Assembly: GCA_963675595.2 (NCBI GenBank)
Contig: CAXXLZ010000001.1
Span: 1,696,001-1,760,000 of the forward strand
Length of the DNA stretch: 64,000 bases
Direction: 5' to 3'
DNA from: Thermodesulfobacteriota bacterium
GTDB lineage: Bacteria > Desulfobacterota > Desulfarculia > JACQYL01
The notes below the pieces were generated by a model. That model made no database searches and was not told the origin of the DNA. It worked only from the letters and a program-made list of their open reading frames with translations. Positions 38,262 through 49,583 of this stretch are shown one piece after another. The translations under genes were made by a program, and so were the position numbers. The stretch's first letter is position 1. Each line of letters begins with the position of its first letter.

Positions 38262-38600
38262 ATGACCGCCTCCATCGCGGAAACTATAATGGAAGACCGG
38301 GACCTCGGAAAGCTCGTCCGGGTATTGGTCGGCAGGTTCGACCCCGAACGGGTGTATTTGTATGGTGATGCGGCGCAAGGGTCGACAACGGACTGCGAAA
38401 CCTATCATTTGGTCATGGTCGTCTCATCGGCCCACGATCCACAACATCAAGAGAAGGAAATCGCCGAAATCACTACCGGGTTGGGGGCTTCGACGCCGGT
38501 CCGTGTTCTCACGAGACACGAATTCGAGGGTCAGCTTGAGATACCCGAATCGCTCCCGAACCTCGTTGCACAAAACGGCTGGGTCCTTTACGGAATTTAA
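38262..38600 (+). CDS. Minimal nucleotidyltransferase (MNT)-like protein with degenerate catalytic motif
   Basis: FDPERVYLYG..A.G start and G.VLY end match the MNT fold, but GS is GD and DxD is replaced. Confidence 0.65.
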   Translation: MTASIAETIMEDRDLGKLVRVLVGRFDPERVYLYGDAAQGSTTDCETYHLVMVVSSAHDPQHQEKEIAEITTGLGASTPVRVLTRHEFEGQLEIPESLPNLVAQNGWVLYGI

Positions 38601-38645
38601 CCGGACCGGGCCGAATTCTTTGCTCATAAGAAAGGGGGAAAACGG

Positions 38646-38828
38646 ATGAACGACAAAGAAGAGAAGGTGCTCGAAGCCATGAAGAACGCCGGACAACCCG
38701 TCCGTCCCGGTGACGTGGTCACCTCCACCGGACTGTCCAAAGAAGAGGTATCCAAGACCATCACCTCTCTGAAGAAGCAGGGGCTCATCATCTCGCCCAA
38801 GAGATGCTACTACTCACCAGCCGAATGA
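38646..38828 (+). CDS. Small winged-HTH protein
   Basis: 60 aa VLEAMK.AG.P..PGDV...GL.KEEV.K.I..LKK.G.I.SPKRCYY; GGGGG RBS. Confidence 0.8.
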   Translation: MNDKEEKVLEAMKNAGQPVRPGDVVTSTGLSKEEVSKTITSLKKQGLIISPKRCYYSPAE

Positions 38829-38950
38829 GCGAGGGCGAACCGCCATGATTCGAACGGGCGCGGTTCCCGCCGGCCCGTTCAAAACGCATTCGCCCTCTCA
38901 TCCAATAGCGGAGATCCCAACGGACTTAGCAGCCCTTAAGCGGCTTCGCC

Positions 38951-40588
38951 CTATTCATCTCGGCCGGCGACCACCGGCTCTGTTTGCTCGGAACCGGCCC
39001 AAAGCCTGATCAGGAACGTCTGCATCAAAGACAACACGACGAAGTAGCCCATCCACGAGGGAAATCCCGCGATCACGGCATTGGAATCGGACCACTGCCA
39101 CCAGTCCAGCGAAGCAAAAAACAGGATCGCGAACGCCGCTCCGAACCCGATCACTCGTCGAGAAACGTTCTCCATCACCAGCCTCGCGGAAGGCAGAAGA
39201 GCCGCTGTTACGATATAGACTCCGAAAGTCGTGATAATGATCGGCACGGCGGGTAGAAAGTTCCCCGAGGGCAACACCTTGAAGTAGGAGAGAATGACGA
39301 GGGTTTCCCCCACGAGAATCGACGATACGGCGGCCACCGTACTTGGTTTTTTGGAATAAAGCCCGAAAAAAACCGTCGGGAAGAGCACGGCCAGACCAGT
39401 GAAGGTTTGGGTTGCAATCTGGATGATGGTCGACGAAGGCCGTATGGCAAAGAAAAGTCCCACCGCCGCCAGACCAAGCACGAAGATTCTACCCGGCAAA
39501 GCCGTGGTGCGCTCATCCGACCGCCTGAAGATGGGATATATGTCCCTCGTGAAAATGGAACTCAACGTCAGAAGCTGAGAGTCCATGGTGGACATCAACG
39601 CAGCCAGCCCGGCGGAAATGATGAGCGTACCCATGAAGTCCCCACCGATTTCCTTCATCATCAGAGGAAGAACCCGGTCCGCTTCTTTTCCTTCGAGTCC
39701 GGGGAAGGAAAGATGCCCGAAAACTCCCAGGGCTACCGGGAGGAAAAACACCACAGTGCACACCAGTGGATAAAACAACATGGTGGACCTCAGCGCCGCC
39801 GGATTCTTCGCGCTGAAGAACCTCTGAAACAGCTGCGGGAACATGGGATCACAGAAGAACCAGAGCATTATGAAGCTGAACCAGAGTTCCGGTCCAAACC
39901 GTCCCAGTCCTCCCGGTCGCGAGAGCAGCTCGGGGTGTGAATGCCGAACGGCTTCGTTGGCGGCACTCAATCCCCCGTAATGATCCGCCACCATCCAAAG
40001 CGCTAGAATCATTAAGAACAACATCAGGAACCCCTGAAAAACGTCCGTCCAAGCAACAGCCCTGAGCCCGCCTCGAAAGGTGTACAAGACGATGACCAGA
40101 GTGATGATAAGAGCCCCTGTTGCTTGAGGAATTTCCAGCAGTTCGTTCAGCACGTACCCCCCTGCCATGGGCTGCAACGCCAAATAGGGTATGGTGAACA
40201 CGATCATCACCAGAGCGAAAAGTACGGAGAGTCCCCGACTGCCGTAAAGCTCGGCCACCAGCTCGGGCGGCGAAACCAATCCCTTCTCCCGCCCCACTTG
40301 CCAAATCCGTTTGCCGATGACCCAAAACGTCAGAGCCATGAATCCGGTGCCGAACCCCACAATGGGGAAGAAAGCATAACCGTCTCGGTATCCCGCGCCG
40401 GATGCACCAAACACGGTGAAAGCCGAAAAATTGGTCGCCGCCATGGTCCCCAGAAGAACGATTCCGCCAAGCCCCCTACCCGCGAGAAAATATTCGTCCG
40501 GACTGGAACGCCAGCGCGTTCGCGCAAAGAACCCGATGGCAAGAACGACTAAAAAATACCCAGCGATCACGGCAATTCGAACAGACAC
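38951..40588 (-). CDS. Sodium:solute symporter (SSS) family protein
   Basis: EYFLAGR, ATNFSAF, GGLRAVAWTD.FQG and AALMSTMDSQLL motifs; GTG at 40588 with GGAGGT RBS (the ORF-track start at 41023 is over-extended). Confidence 0.93.
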   Translation of the reverse strand: MSVRIAVIAGYFLVVLAIGFFARTRWRSSPDEYFLAGRGLGGIVLLGTMAATNFSAFTVFGASGAGYRDGYAFFPIVGFGTGFMALTFWVIGKRIWQVGREKGLVSPPELVAELYGSRGLSVLFALVMIVFTIPYLALQPMAGGYVLNELLEIPQATGALIITLVIVLYTFRGGLRAVAWTDVFQGFLMLFLMILALWMVADHYGGLSAANEAVRHSHPELLSRPGGLGRFGPELWFSFIMLWFFCDPMFPQLFQRFFSAKNPAALRSTMLFYPLVCTVVFFLPVALGVFGHLSFPGLEGKEADRVLPLMMKEIGGDFMGTLIISAGLAALMSTMDSQLLTLSSIFTRDIYPIFRRSDERTTALPGRIFVLGLAAVGLFFAIRPSSTIIQIATQTFTGLAVLFPTVFFGLYSKKPSTVAAVSSILVGETLVILSYFKVLPSGNFLPAVPIIITTFGVYIVTAALLPSARLVMENVSRRVIGFGAAFAILFFASLDWWQWSDSNAVIAGFPSWMGYFVVLSLMQTFLIRLWAGSEQTEPVVAGRDE

Positions 40589-40602
40589 AGGTCCACCTCC
40601 CC

Positions 40603-40639
40603 AAAAAAAAGCGGCCACCCCGCAAGTCGGGATGGCCGT
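40603..40639 (-). terminator. Intrinsic terminator in the symporter 5' leader
   Basis: Minus strand CGGCCAUCCCG-ACUUG-CGGGGUGGCCG-C-U8, ending directly before the RBS. Confidence 0.88.
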
Positions 40640-40677
40640 AAGCCTGACATAACCTGCAAACAACTGACTAATTGTTG
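40603..40677 (-). ncRNA. Candidate riboswitch/attenuator leader (Na+-sensing class is the first hypothesis)
   Basis: Short structured segment between a sigma-70 promoter and a terminator whose 5' arm overlaps it; family identity not verified. Confidence 0.55.
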
Positions 40678-40683
40678 CGCGGG

Positions 40684-40712
40684 AGTATACGGGACTTGCC
40701 GCTCCGGGACAA
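40684..40712 (-). promoter_or_regulatory. Sigma-70 promoter of the symporter
   Basis: Minus strand TTGTCC-N17-TATACT. Confidence 0.75.
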
Positions 40713-40910
40713 GAGGAAAAAATCAAAAAATAGGATAACCCAAGTTCGTTGCAAGGCCGCCAAACAAACAATACAATATCCGGCATCCCAATACGTTTTA
40801 TGTAAGGTGCGATGAGCGTGCTGAACATCGACAACGGAAAGCCTTGATCGCCGGGCTGGGCCAACGCCGAATCGGGCTTGCCGTGTGTCGTTTTGCGAAA
40901 AGGAGAACGT

Positions 40911-41690
40911 TTGAACTGGAGAGTGGCCACATTCAACGCCAATTCCATTCGATCCCGGCTTGACCTGATATTGGGCCGGCTCGAAAAACATCGTCCCAAT
41001 GTCTTATGTGTCCAGGAAACCAAGGTTCGGGACTCGGAATTTCCGCGAGAGGCTTTCGCCGGAACCGGGTTCGAGGTGGTCTTCCACGGGCAGAAAAGCT
41101 ACAACGGTGTCGCGCTGATCACCCGCAGCCGGCCGGAAGATGTCATTGTGTCTTTCGGCGACGAAGGAGCTGAAGGAGAGGCCAGGATGATTATGGCAAC
41201 GGTGGACGGAGTGAAAATTCTGAACACCTATGTTCCCCAGGGAAGAGATCCGGACAGCGAGCATTTCGAGGCCAAGATCGCTTTTTTCCACCGAATCAAG
41301 GAATTCTTAAGCGAAAACCATGATCCCGCGGCGCCCCTCATCTGGGCGGGCGACTTGAACGTCGCCCCCGAGCCCGAGGACGTGTATGACCCGAAACGGA
41401 TGGAGGGCCACGTTTGTTTCCACCCCCGAGAAAGGGAGGCTCTGGCGGAAATCAAAGAATGGGGATTGATCGACGTGTTCCGTCTTCACAACAAGGAGGC
41501 GAAGCAATATACATTCTGGGATTACCGTCTGCCCAAAGCACTGGAGCGAAATCTGGGTTGGCGGTTGGACCACATTTTGGCGACCCGTCCGCTCGCGGAC
41601 GCCTCTCGGGGGGCATGGATCGATTTCGAAGCACGGGCGTTGCCGAAACCTTCCGATCATACGTTTCTGGTGGCCGACTTCGAGCTGTGA
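40911..41690 (+). CDS. xth: Exodeoxyribonuclease III
   Basis: ATFNANSIR, CVQETK, YNGVA, YVPQG, GDLNVA, YTFWDYR, GWRLDH and PSDH motifs; TTG start with AAGGAG RBS. Confidence 0.96.
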   Translation: MNWRVATFNANSIRSRLDLILGRLEKHRPNVLCVQETKVRDSEFPREAFAGTGFEVVFHGQKSYNGVALITRSRPEDVIVSFGDEGAEGEARMIMATVDGVKILNTYVPQGRDPDSEHFEAKIAFFHRIKEFLSENHDPAAPLIWAGDLNVAPEPEDVYDPKRMEGHVCFHPREREALAEIKEWGLIDVFRLHNKEAKQYTFWDYRLPKALERNLGWRLDHILATRPLADASRGAWIDFEARALPKPSDHTFLVADFEL

Positions 41691-42228
41691 TAGTCCAGCC
41701 CGCATTACGCGAAACTCCGGCGAAGCGAACGTGAATCATACATACTGTTCCAACCATTGATGGAAACCGTCCCTCATGGACGACCCGGGGCGGGGGCGGC
41801 CTTCGCCTTTTTTCTCCTGCATCGGGAGCCGCGCTTCCCGCGCCCTTGAATCACTCTCAACGATTTGCGGGCCATATTATGCTCCGGATATGTTTTCCGG
41901 AAGTCTCAGTACCACACTTTCAGATGTTGCAATTATCGATCCGGTCTTCTACAATTAAGAATTTGCGGCATGATCAATCACTGTCGTGAGGCTTGTCGTA
42001 TTCCATCCCATCAATTTCTCTTGAATAGACTGAATTTCATCGCATGTTTTTCCTGTGACGGCCCGTTTGAAAATGAAGACATGCGAGGCATGCGAACGTC
42101 CGGAAACAATTCGCTCGCCGAGTATACCGTGGTAACGGGAAATCGGCCACAATCCGTTTACTGCGGACGGATCGTCTCCGGGGACCCGACACCGGAAGGC
42201 TCTGCATCGGTATAGAAGGTTCCAAATC

Positions 42229-42795
42229 ATGCATCAGGAGTCGAGGACCATGCCCTGGATGGCGCTGATTGTGCTACTGTTCCCTCTCTGGTTCGCTGCG
42301 CCCGGCTGTACACCGACGCCCACGGATGAAGCGCTGGAATTCAGGAACGAAGTCATTTCCAGATCGGTACCCCTACGAAGCGAAACGGCATCTCTGATTG
42401 CGGAGGGAAATCCGGGAGGAATTCGGACTCTGTTCGTATCGTTCTTCGAAAAATACTGGGATGAAAAGAGTCCCTATCTGGGACTCGTTGCCTTCGACAA
42501 CGAAGCCAAGGTACTGTGCGCCTACAGTCCCGTTGAAGACGCCACCCGCGTAAAAGGTTTGAACTTCTCCAACTACGAGGCCATCAGGAAAGCCTTGAAA
42601 TCCGAGCGGACCACGACCATGGTGCTCTATTACCTTCAAAACGGTAAACGCTTCACCATGCCGGCGGTCAACTTCCCTTTGGACCGAAACGGTGAGGTCG
42701 TCGGGATATTGAGCGTCTTCTTCCTGAGAGAAACCCTTGAAGCGGAATACGGTATCAAGGTCGAGGAGTTCGAAAGATTGGAATTCGGGGACTGA
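42229..42795 (+). CDS. Lipoprotein with probable Cache/PDC-like domain
   Basis: Hydrophobic signal ending APGC; NFSNY..I.KAL and P...NGEVVGIL patterns typical of Cache domains; start may be 42250. Confidence 0.55.
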   Translation: MHQESRTMPWMALIVLLFPLWFAAPGCTPTPTDEALEFRNEVISRSVPLRSETASLIAEGNPGGIRTLFVSFFEKYWDEKSPYLGLVAFDNEAKVLCAYSPVEDATRVKGLNFSNYEAIRKALKSERTTTMVLYYLQNGKRFTMPAVNFPLDRNGEVVGILSVFFLRETLEAEYGIKVEEFERLEFGD

Positions 42796-47707: not shown

Positions 47708-49583
47708 GATGCCGTCGTAAGAACCCCCCTTTACGAACAGGGCTGTTTTTTGGAGCATTGGAAGTTCAAGCGGCCATTGCAACACTGCCAAGGTTACTGT
47801 CATCGTGACATAGGCTACAAAGACGACGGAAATTATCGTTGCTGCCTCCCTCTATCGAGTTGGAAAGGGCCTTCTTGGCCTTATCAAGGCGGCTCTGGAC
47901 GAACCTCTTGATGTTGATGGCCAGGGCCTTCATGAAAACAGATAAGGTGACCCGTTTTTTGCCTCGGGTCCACGATCGTTTCAATCCCGTGACCCGATCC
48001 GCTTCGGAGATGGTGGCCTCGATGCCGGACCGGATTTTGTAGCGTTCTTTGAAATCATGGCTTTCCTGCTGTAGTCTGCGCTTGGAGGTCGCCATGTCCT
48101 TGCGCTTGTACTTCAGTCGATAATTTCCGCCCTTGATCCGTTTTACCGGACAGATGGGGAGAAATTCGCATAGGAGACAGTGCTCGCGGGAAAACACGGC
48201 TTCCACCGCTTTGCCGCGGTCAACGATCTTGCATTCAAGTGGCGCGTGCCCCCGGATACAGTAAACGACCTGGGTGCAGTCCTCGTTCGTTTCAAAGTCA
48301 CTCAACTGCATCTTATTGAGATCCGGCGCTTTTCCGCAAGTCACCGGAGCGGTAAGCTCGACTCCGTGCTCGTGAGCTTGAAGGATGTTCTCGCCGCTGC
48401 CGTAGCCTGCGTCGGCGAACAACTCTTCGGGTTTGCGGCCCGTTTCCTCCAGGCGTTCGATAACGGGCATCACGTCTTTCTGGTCGCTGTCATAGGAAGG
48501 GGCCACGTCCACATCGGTGATCACCTGGAAGGGATTTTCCTTCACGCAGGTCTCCGTGAGGGAAGCCTTATATCCTTTGCCCTTGCGCCCATAGGTGGCG
48601 TCGGGATCCGAAGGATTCTGCAGGGAGTCCGCAGGGATTTCCTTGGGCTTCTCGAGTTCTGTTTTGTCGGGATCTCCCTCGGTGAAACGGCATTGCTCCG
48701 ACAGTAGTCGGGCCATCAGCCGGTATTCTTTCATTCGGCTGATTTCCGGATGACCTCGGAAGCGGTCCACCAGGTCGGCGAGATGGCGGGCGGACTTGTC
48801 CAGACGACGCTTGGCCCGCGATGATTTTGCATCGGCAAAATAGCCTGCGCGCTTCAAGTAGGCCTTGTCGTAAAGTCGGGGCAGTTTCTCATACAACTTG
48901 GGATGTTTCTTATGGAGCCGTTTCAAGAACGCCTCGATGGTGCGCGTAAAGAGCCCCAGACGGCTCAGATGAGCCATGTTGGAAGTGATCTGTGTGGAGT
49001 CCAACCGCTGTTTGTCCGTGCTAAGGGCCGCCGTCTCGATGATGGCGTCCGTGATTCCGGTAAAGAGGCTCCGCGCTTGCTTGTTGTCGGTAATCAAGGT
49101 CCGGAAATTGTGCAGGGTCTTCTGGCAGACGTGAGATTCAAAGGCGTTGATGTTGAAGGCATATTGCCAACGCAGATCGAAGTCCAGAGCGCCCAAGACT
49201 TCCGCATCGGTCAGGCTGTTCATTTCCTTCAAAACACACGCTCCGACAAGGATGGCCACGGGTCTGTTGGGCCTGCCGTTGTCCTCACAGTAGAAAGGCC
49301 GGAAAGACTCCTCATCGATCATGGGAAGCACCAGGCGCCGGAACGGACCGGCCCACGTCTTCTCCAACGCCTCGATCCTGTCTGCGGGAAGGCAAATATC
49401 GTGGTCGAAAATGGTCTTTTGCGTTCTCTTAGGCCGAAACAAAACAACCCCCCTAAGGACCATATTATTAATCAAGTCAGATACTTATCATACAGGACCC
49501 AAAAGAAAGGTCAACCCATAAATGCCATTTTTATTCATATTTTCAACTAGATACCTTTACGGAGAGGTTTTTACGAACTCATC
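47708..49583. mobile_element. Complete insertion sequence (1876 bp; IS1182/IS5-like DDE)
   Basis: Imperfect TIRs GATGCCGTCGTAAGAACC and GATGAGTTCGTAAAAACC (14/18); direct repeat ATTCTT on both flanks (47702-47707 and 49584-49589). Confidence 0.9.
47766..49442 (-). CDS. DDE transposase (DUF772-like N-terminus, DDE_Tnp_1_6-like C-terminus)
   Basis: GRP, DST, D.DATY..K..GYK, ADAGY, CxxC..CP and YKIRSGIEATISE motifs; uninterrupted ORF, probable TTG start at 49442. Confidence 0.92.
   Translation of the reverse strand: MFRPKRTQKTIFDHDICLPADRIEALEKTWAGPFRRLVLPMIDEESFRPFYCEDNGRPNRPVAILVGACVLKEMNSLTDAEVLGALDFDLRWQYAFNINAFESHVCQKTLHNFRTLITDNKQARSLFTGITDAIIETAALSTDKQRLDSTQITSNMAHLSRLGLFTRTIEAFLKRLHKKHPKLYEKLPRLYDKAYLKRAGYFADAKSSRAKRRLDKSARHLADLVDRFRGHPEISRMKEYRLMARLLSEQCRFTEGDPDKTELEKPKEIPADSLQNPSDPDATYGRKGKGYKASLTETCVKENPFQVITDVDVAPSYDSDQKDVMPVIERLEETGRKPEELFADAGYGSGENILQAHEHGVELTAPVTCGKAPDLNKMQLSDFETNEDCTQVVYCIRGHAPLECKIVDRGKAVEAVFSREHCLLCEFLPICPVKRIKGGNYRLKYKRKDMATSKRRLQQESHDFKERYKIRSGIEATISEADRVTGLKRSWTRGKKRVTLSVFMKALAINIKRFVQSRLDKAKKALSNSIEGGSNDNFRRLCSLCHDDSNLGSVAMAA

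Follow-up and report, generated by a model that had tools for sequence, protein, structure and literature searches.

The window analysed here is a 64,000-nt stretch of a Thermodesulfobacteriota bacterium genome (contig CAXXLZ010000001.1), and our subject is the leader that precedes a gene for a 545-amino-acid (aa) sodium:solute symporter (SSS) family protein within it. Promoter, leader, terminator and symporter gene all lie on the minus strand and are arranged as follows, with P1 and P2 denoting two helices and J1/2 and J2/1 the two sides of the internal loop between them.

40684..40712, minus strand: sigma-70-like promoter, TTGTCC (40712-40707), 17-nt spacer, TATACT (40689-40684), 9/12 consensus matches
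40658..40675, minus strand: 7-bp hairpin AACAAUU-AGUC-AGUUGUU between the promoter and the motif, outside the conserved element and specific to this genome
40652..40657, minus strand: P1 5' strand GCAGGU, pairing with 40627-40622
40645..40651, minus strand: J1/2, 5' side of the internal loop, UAUGUC-A, its UAUG near-invariant
40634..40644, minus strand: P2 hairpin, GGCU (40644-40641), loop UAC (40640-40638), GGCC (40637-40634)
40628..40633, minus strand: J2/1, 3' side of the internal loop, AUCCCG, strictly conserved, also the middle of the terminator 5' arm
40622..40627, minus strand: P1 3' strand ACUUGC, also the terminator loop and the first base of the terminator 3' arm
40603..40638, minus strand: intrinsic terminator, stem 40638-40612, C at 40611, U8 at 40610-40603
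40596..40600, minus strand: Shine-Dalgarno sequence GGAGG, 7 nt before the GTG start, by sequence reading
38951..40588, minus strand: regulated gene, SSS family protein of 545 aa, GTG start at 40588, proposed importer of para-aminobenzoate (PABA)

Much of this architecture had been recognised in a preliminary description of the locus, which reported the two promoter boxes and an 11-bp GC-rich terminator with a U8 tract immediately before the symporter's ribosome-binding site (RBS). Both are present. The terminator stem (CGGCCATCCCG / CGGGGTGGCCG; 40638-40612) consists of 11 pairs, 9 of them G-C, closed by a 5-nt loop, and is the first-listed and most-paired terminator-like site in the 4-kb stretch scanned. 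Since the upstream neighbour of the leader, an exodeoxyribonuclease III gene, is divergent and lies on the plus strand, this hairpin ends only its own leader. The conserved hairpin formed by P1 and P2 measures 36 nt (40657-40622).

The same description had offered two identities for the leader, a Na+-I (DUF1646 motif) riboswitch or an undescribed small aptamer, and only the second withstood comparison with known RNA families. When all 4227 models of Rfam 15 were scanned with cmscan, the whole window gave 0 matches at gathering thresholds, the Na+-I (DUF1646) and nhaA-I models included. The leader alone, searched at E up to 10, returned only suhB/mmgR and BcKCsr2 (E 1.2 and 1.9; scores of 14.7 against a gathering threshold of 41, and 13.7 against 40), both matches being driven by the terminator. 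Twenty orthologous loci yielded tRNAs only at gathering thresholds, leaving the motif unmatched, and in 15 diverse loci searched at E up to 5 the motif was again unmatched, bar one chance-level small RNA match (E 0.94). The ZTP model (RF01750), which was positive in 3/14 control genomes in the same search, found nothing in the whole window genome at E up to 0.001. These covariance-model scans rule out membership of any Rfam family, including Na+-I, the nhaA-I Li+ class, tetrahydrofolate (THF) and ZTP. Judged by these comparisons, the leader is a conserved aptamer-like element that matches no described RNA family.

The two weak matches to small RNA families bear on another way of reading the locus, in which promoter, ~75-nt transcript and terminator constitute the gene of a trans-acting small RNA and the position of the symporter is incidental, or in which an attenuated leader has a second role. 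Termination would indeed free a short, stable, hairpin-ended RNA. We regard this as very improbable: the matches are terminator-driven and far under gathering, and the position of the element is always immediately upstream of, and co-directional with, one of the three functionally linked gene sets described below.

The conservation of the element is extensive. Among 61 related genomes, including that of the window, an orthologous symporter (52-72% identity) was identified in 25 of the 60 others, and the motif lies upstream of 26/26 orthologues, 46-176 nt before the start codon. These 26 leaders share the pattern GCARGUUAUGYY..AGGY..GGCCAUCCC, followed by a stem top that varies, then by GGGRYGGCC and a U-tract. 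A covariance model of the motif finds one match in the window's 6.8-Mb genome (E 1.4e-14) and no other below E 3. This lone match, together with the recurrence of the element before orthologous genes in several classes, shows that it is more than a chance resemblance. In all, ~100 distinct motif sequences were collected.

Applied to the first alignment, RNAalifold recovered the terminator alone. The P1 helix was exposed by comparison with a variant, CGAGU...CCAGACUCG, found among the weaker full-length matches of the first covariance model, R1. P1 joins the six bases before UAUG to the six bases after AYCCMR, as in GCAGGU/ACUUGC (window), GCAGAU/GUCUGC, GCUGGU/ACCAG, CGAGU/ACUCG, GCAAGC/GCUUGU and GUAGAU/AUCUAC. 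P2 is a GGY/RCC helix (third pair CG 54, UG 10, UA 7) with a loop of variable length, including UUCG and GAAA tetraloops and long insertions. Between the helices lies an asymmetric and strictly conserved internal loop, 5' UAUGYC-A and 3' AYCCMR. Its consensus was taken from 102 distinct sequences filtered for P1 pairing: J1/2 reads UAUG in 100 of them, then mostly UC (48) or CC (23), then AGG in 100, and J2/1 reads AUCCCG in 73, AUCCCA in 15, ACCCAG in 8 and AUCCAG in 5.

In a MAFFT alignment of 34 distinct sequences made without any structure fitting, 92.4% of cells pair, as against 84.2% in shuffles and 17-44% when the partners are slid. The alignment holds 35 cells changed on both sides, where 11.1 are expected, and 0/500 shuffles reached that count or the observed covariation score. 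Double changes occur in all 6 P1 pairs (for example AU 23, GC 7, UA 3 and GU 1 at pair 3-40; GC 18, AU 12 and GU 4 at pair 4-39; GC 25, AU 6 and GU 3 at pair 5-38). Another 72 distinct sequences, aligned by fitting them to the model, a procedure that leans towards the structure, gave 83 double changes against 28.5 expected (0/500 shuffles). The alternation of U-A with U.G is consistent with an RNA on the minus strand only. A DNA operator is ruled out, because the spacing of the conserved blocks varies, compensatory changes preserve pairing and G.U pairs are meaningful on just one of the strands. The preliminary description had named a lack of conservation or covariation in orthologous leaders as telling against its proposal; with the motif in 26/26 orthologous leaders of the related genomes and P1 covarying, both are found.

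Its suggested pairings fared less well. The AACAAUU/AGUUGUU stem exists in the window (40675-40658) but is absent from two leaders of the same family (loci L002 and L003), which have a different sequence of similar length at that site, so it is not the conserved pairing. For the competing GUUUG/CAGGC stem we found no support, the real helices being GCAGGU/ACUUGC and GGCU/GGCC. That it saw no leader peptide is borne out: reading frames from the conserved AUG run in differing frames or end after 2 codons (L006, L011, L016 and L018). Leader-peptide attenuation was likewise rejected, since the AUG in the loop is invariant but its open reading frames (ORFs) read into the conserved GGCCAUCCC in each of the three frames.

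We also noted a tRNA-Asn (GTT) gene on the opposite strand ~110-180 nt upstream of the motif in nine loci (L005, L006, L008, L009, L010, L012, L016, L018 and L019). ARAGORN, run on 10 loci, placed tRNA-Asn in 9 and a tRNA-Val, elsewhere in the locus, in 1 (L023). A link to tRNAs or T-boxes was dropped, as the adjoining tRNA genes are on the other strand and reflect synteny only.

The genes that follow the motif were counted by searching with the RNA models only, without any protein query; in the scan of the window's class, matches above E 1e-4 were left out, apart from those set aside as described below. The three main scans gave the following counts, where pab denotes operons for PABA synthesis and ABC an ATP-binding cassette transporter with a Peripla_BP_6-type binding protein.

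Class of the window, 95 genomes: 39 with the motif, before SSS in 32, pab in 5 and ABC in 2
Phylum sample, 151 genomes: 16 with the motif, before SSS in 8, pab in 5, an ABC binding protein in 2, and 1 weak match before an isochorismatase-family gene (no terminator)
Class of genome G246, 151 genomes: 27 with the motif, before SSS in 12, pab in 13, ABC in 1, and 1 with no gene within 600 nt

In the class of genome G186, 5 of 9 genomes had a match, every one before a symporter, and the class of G159, with 2 genomes only, added nothing. Three lower-scoring matches (L062, L066 and L067), without P1 or the loop consensus, were set aside as ordinary terminators. Every genome examined holds a single copy of the motif. 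In most leaders the distance from its end to the start codon is ~30-230 nt, and in the two most distant cases it reaches 415 and 578 nt.

The first gene of the pab operons encodes a TrpG/PabA-subfamily glutamine amidotransferase. The chorismate-binding proteins encoded downstream pass the PabB cut-off in 6/6 cases tested (329.1-357.3 bits; cut-off 328.4), and the same six fail that for TrpE (342-390 bits; cut-off 517.7). In two loci (L182 and L195) PabB is fused to a class-IV aminotransferase domain, forming PabB-PabC fusions, and in three (L061, L186 and L190) pabB is followed by a PabC-like gene of its own. A tryptophan regulon, suggested by reading the MIDNYDSFT genes as trpG, is therefore ruled out in favour of the NCBIfam assignment pabA-pabB-pabC. 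No fol or pur genes were seen behind the motif in these scans. Since one motif is shared by pab operons and importers, the regulon would be that of PABA synthesis or uptake.

These counts also bear on the idea that the leader is a Na+ (DUF1646) or Li+ (nhaA-I) riboswitch before a Na+-coupled transporter. The downstream gene does belong to the sodium:solute symporter family, and those classes are ON switches, as the available text of PMC9337991 and PMC9646797 has it. We give this next to no chance: terminator artefacts aside, none of the Rfam models matches, which refutes family membership, and instead of a sodium-related regulon the same motif precedes pabA-pabB(-pabC) operons, unrelated to sodium, in 5 + 5 + 13 genomes of the three model-only scans.

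Several loci depart from the common gene order. In L197 (1034-2212 (+)), the motif precedes pabA, and the place of pabB after it is taken by a gene of the myo-inositol-1-phosphate synthase family. The weak match of the phylum sample (L086, 1501-3039 (+); 28 bits), which has no terminator, stands before the isochorismatase-family gene and one for a pyridine nucleotide-disulphide oxidoreductase. Possible readings are a fortuitous match or a variant that acts on translation and belongs to a different pathway derived from chorismate. In two ABC-type loci of the window's order (L059, 1937-3120 (-), and L060, 1854-3114 (-)), the binding-protein gene appears as two consecutive ORFs of ~220 aa and then 164-263 aa, as against a single ORF of ~400 aa in L176 and L087, which could reflect a genuine split, a frameshift or an error in the assembly.

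To which substrate might the symporter be assigned? The protein passes the general profiles PF00474 (179.4 bits; cut-off 22.8) and TIGR00813 (194.7; cut-off 184), and fails the equivalog models for PanF (191.8; cut-off 328.05) and PutP (153.6; cut-off 515.5). The gene content of the host genomes is informative here. In the window genome (G000; 98% complete), the PabB query recovers, at 33% identity, one chorismate-binding homologue. It lies inside a trpE-trpG-trpD cluster and so is TrpE, an identity by cluster shown in this genome only. A PabC query of the window genome found nothing. Among other symporter-type genomes, the PabB query recovers one chorismate-binding homologue each in G009, G246 and G249 (33-38% identity) and none in G247, so that a second, PabB-type chorismate enzyme is missing from 5/5 symporter-type genomes tested (no search was aimed at alternative routes to PABA). 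Two such homologues occur in the pab-type genome G012. Conversely, no symporter orthologue was found at E up to 1e-50 in pab-type and ABC-type genomes (G012, G051, G003 and G004). This complementary make-or-import pattern supports, though it does not prove, the import of PABA by the symporter, which is proposed as an importer because of the shared regulon and its occurrence in a genome without PabB.

Scanning 185,579 species genomes with the protein as guide gave 411 symporter relatives. Among the best 80 loci, which were examined, 75 have the motif upstream. Carriers, by record title, include Desulfobacterales, Desulfatiglandales, Desulfarculia, Syntrophus and Desulfonema magnum 4be13 (L144). 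The motif was also present in 5 metagenome-assembled genomes (MAGs) titled Dehalococcoidia or Dehalococcoidales (L125, L138, L145, L153 and L155) and in 1 titled Leptospirales (L161). The Dehalococcoidia copies form a sequence group of their own, with an unusually long, purine-rich terminator loop. This distribution suggests that leader and gene have moved horizontally as a cassette, unless the binning of these MAGs is wrong. In two loci from which the leader is absent (L111 and L120; 900-1200 (+)), the symporter follows close behind a conserved gene ending in ...GVKLGKIVKK, an arrangement that suggests co-transcription and a different mode of control.

How might such a leader regulate? The preliminary description had pointed out that the 3' part of the leader doubles as the 5' arm of the terminator, in the layout of an ON switch, and as anatomy this is borne out. 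The terminator 5' arm is made up of the P2 3' strand, J2/1 and the start of the P1 3' strand, and such an overlap is seen in 74/75 leaders. In the window, 0 nt separate the P1 3' strand from the terminator 3' arm. Because they share a strand and no linker is available to cross P1, P1 and the full terminator stem are mutually exclusive; the lack of a linker also rules out, for the window, a pseudoknot between P1 and the terminator. The terminator 5' arm is invariant, while its 3' arm drifts, tolerating U.G and A.C pairs, which implies that the 5' arm must have another role too. For the window, the predicted energies are -10.9 kcal/mol for the aptamer fold and -23.1 kcal/mol for the terminator. 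Across the 102 sequences, the minimum free energy structure of the aptamer by itself includes P1 in 99, and adding 30 nt of downstream sequence lowers the mean minimum free energy from -9.9 to -27.0 kcal/mol. These features suggest that termination would be the default state and that stabilisation of the hairpin would lead to read-through, an ON polarity predicted from anatomy.

The opposite polarity has its own merits. In an OFF switch, PABA or a folate would bind the fold that contains the terminator, and the P1/P2 hairpin would be the antiterminator of the ligand-free state. End-product repression is usual for genes of vitamin synthesis and uptake, and a terminator-embedded aptamer has a precedent in the hydroxymethylpyrimidine pyrophosphate (HMP-PP) riboswitches, as far as the available text of PMC6478431 goes. 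We nevertheless think an OFF switch distinctly unlikely. The terminator 3' arm varies among leaders (GGGGUGGC, GGGAUGGC, GGGACGGC, GGGGCGGC), which makes the stem an unlikely specific pocket; the conserved unpaired nucleotides all fall in the internal loop of the P1/P2 fold; and with no spacer in the window, the 5' region cannot dock on the loop once the full stem has formed.

In the ON arrangement, the far more stable terminator would form by default and transcription would halt ~15 nt before the start codon. A small molecule, most likely bound in the conserved internal loop, would stabilise the hairpin. The stabilised hairpin would then occupy the J2/1 toehold and keep back the terminator 5' arm, allowing RNA polymerase to read through. 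With one copy per genome controlling either pabA-pabB(-pabC) or a putative importer (an SSS symporter or a Peripla_BP_6-type ABC transporter), the element would govern the supply of PABA for folate synthesis. What is looked for in riboswitches in general is found here: a conserved structure in the 5' untranslated region with covarying helices, an expression platform overlapping the aptamer, and functionally coherent genes across lineages, namely PABA synthesis operons and two transporter types. We think it probable that the leader is a riboswitch-like ON switch that senses a small molecule and controls PABA supply, its ligand binding and polarity being predictions. Its structure and regulon are well supported and make it a strong candidate for a new riboswitch, in which ligand binding and ON polarity in vivo are what sequence comparison leads us to expect.

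A protein could, in principle, take the place of the small molecule. Antiterminators of the ribonucleic antiterminator (RAT)/BglG type are short imperfect hairpins that overlap the 5' arm of a terminator and, once stabilised, give read-through; the gene sets here differ in concerning vitamin precursors, not sugars. An RNA-binding protein that senses PABA or folate status might stabilise the present hairpin against the terminator in the manner of RAT hairpins bound by BglG or LicT. Such a mechanism would share the present architecture, and it would suit both the small size of the element and an ON logic that comes without an obvious effector. We rate this as unlikely, although less so than an OFF switch. 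No conserved neighbouring regulator gene, of PRD type or other, was seen nearby, and the flanks vary (the exodeoxyribonuclease III gene, xth, in the window; tRNA-Asn in 9/10 loci). The leader moves with its gene into Dehalococcoidia and Leptospirales MAGs, which would be easier for a self-sufficient RNA. Finally, ~14 loop nucleotides are strictly conserved across classes, as is typical of metabolite pockets (compare THF-II in the available text of PMC6800512).

A number of observations weigh against a small-molecule ON switch for PABA supply and should be set beside it. The promoter of the window is a consensus match only. Sigma-70-like sites are frequent around it (n=7 in 38500-42500, against 1.6 +/- 1.1 in shuffles). 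By eye, similar boxes are present in L002 and L003 at 22-27 nt upstream of P1, and in most other orthologues a -10-like box lies nearer to P1 than in the window. A strict sigma-70 search places a site near the motif in just 17/102 leaders, so the idea of a conserved promoter at a fixed distance was dropped. The shuffle controls of the pair counts ignore the relatedness of the sequences. Five of the 80 symporter loci lack the motif and have other upstream arrangements. One leader with full motif and terminator (L189, 150-800 (+)) has no ORF of at least 90 aa within 600 nt downstream and may be an orphaned leader or belong to a decayed gene. PABA as the substrate of the symporter is inferred from the regulon, and the nearest curated families of the protein are PanF and PutP, whose cut-offs it misses by far. 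A 36-nt hairpin with an internal loop resembles the targets of protein-dependent antitermination as well. Finally, ON polarity makes the simplest feedback signals, PABA and folates, unsuitable, and the sequence names no effector.

With PABA and folates unlikely as effectors of an ON layout, a signal of shortage fits better. We would favour 6-hydroxymethyl-dihydropterin pyrophosphate, the unused partner of PABA, or a related pterin, because the regulon is confined to the PABA branch; ZMP/ZTP (5-aminoimidazole-4-carboxamide ribonucleoside 5'-monophosphate and 5'-triphosphate) would be the second candidate. A more ambitious proposal follows, which we put forward tentatively and consider somewhat doubtful as a whole. 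The motif may be a new riboswitch class and the first regulatory RNA for the PABA branch, an ON switch sensing a metabolite that piles up at PABA shortage (at best 6-hydroxymethyl-7,8-dihydropterin pyrophosphate, the partner substrate of dihydropteroate synthase (DHPS), and ZMP/ZTP in second place) and so balancing both branches, while the SSS symporter and the Peripla_BP_6-type ABC transporter may be the long-missing bacterial PABA importers.

Beyond the leader, a divergent promoter-like site, TTGCAA-17-TACAAT (40749-40777 (+)), faces the exodeoxyribonuclease III gene (40878-41690 (+); TIGR00195, 266 bits), the true start of which is likely at ~40911 (TTG after AAGGAG), as against the first ORF start at 40878. 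Further along the window, a 569-aa ORF (47766-49475 (-)) is transposase-like by eye only.

In the literature searched, neither a dedicated PABA importer of the SSS or Peripla_BP_6-type ABC kind nor a PABA- or pab-linked regulatory RNA is described, the latter including the main texts, supplementary lists apart, of PMC11109978, PMC8632094, PMC5737381, PMC7266159 and bioRxiv 10.64898/2026.10.21.760802, as far as these sources are available. A leader that joins pabABC operons to two transporter types offers a testable assignment for both. Many sulfate reducers and their relatives need PABA in culture, and the assignment would explain how such PABA-requiring organisms scavenge it. The identity of the inducer would show in what way the pterin branch of folate synthesis is kept in balance with the PABA branch. 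With its 36 nt, the aptamer would be among the smallest candidates, which suits structural work and use as a compact genetic part, and its abundance indicates that well-populated riboswitch-like classes are still absent from Rfam.

In mechanism, the element resembles ON switches in which the aptamer directly overlaps the terminator. In adenine riboswitches of the pbuE/ydhL type, the terminator takes its 5' arm from the 3' part of the aptamer, and ligand binding leads to read-through. Direct competition is thus the shared feature; the adenine aptamer is a three-way junction, whereas the present one is a hairpin with no spacer between aptamer and terminator 3' arm. The HMP-PP riboswitch (thiS motif) acts as an OFF switch. 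It likewise has a very small aptamer, serves a vitamin-precursor branch and closely overlaps an intrinsic terminator, but that aptamer is embedded in the terminator, according to the portion of PMC6478431 at hand, whereas here the conserved fold excludes the terminator and the HMP-PP model gives no match. The Na+-I (DUF1646) and Li+ (nhaA-I) classes, as their available descriptions present them, are also small ON switches before cation-coupled transporters; they differ in giving no model match and in that the present regulon includes PABA biosynthesis.

The ZTP class (pfl motif, RF01750) is similar in physiological setting, being an ON switch tied to folate stress whose ligand, a known folate-stress alarmone, signals deficiency of 10-formyl-THF, in the accessible sections of PMC7266159. 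Its model spans 86 positions against 36 here and has no match in the window or its genome, and the same sections associate the class with numerous folate and purine genes, whereas the present motif precedes PABA-branch genes only. In architecture, the closest known RNA is THF-II (the folE motif), which the available text of PMC6800512 describes as a small P1/P2 hairpin with most of its conserved nucleotides in an asymmetric internal bulge, taking part in folate-pathway regulation and having a similar number of representatives (86 unique). That text confines THF-II to Rhizobiales, always before folE, with the RBS in P1 and a translational OFF reading. The present motif, which the THF-II model does not match, occurs in records titled as Desulfobacterota/Thermodesulfobacteriota groups and in MAGs titled Dehalococcoidia and Leptospirales, precedes SSS, pab or ABC genes and never folE in the genomes examined, and pairs its hairpin with a terminator in an ON layout.

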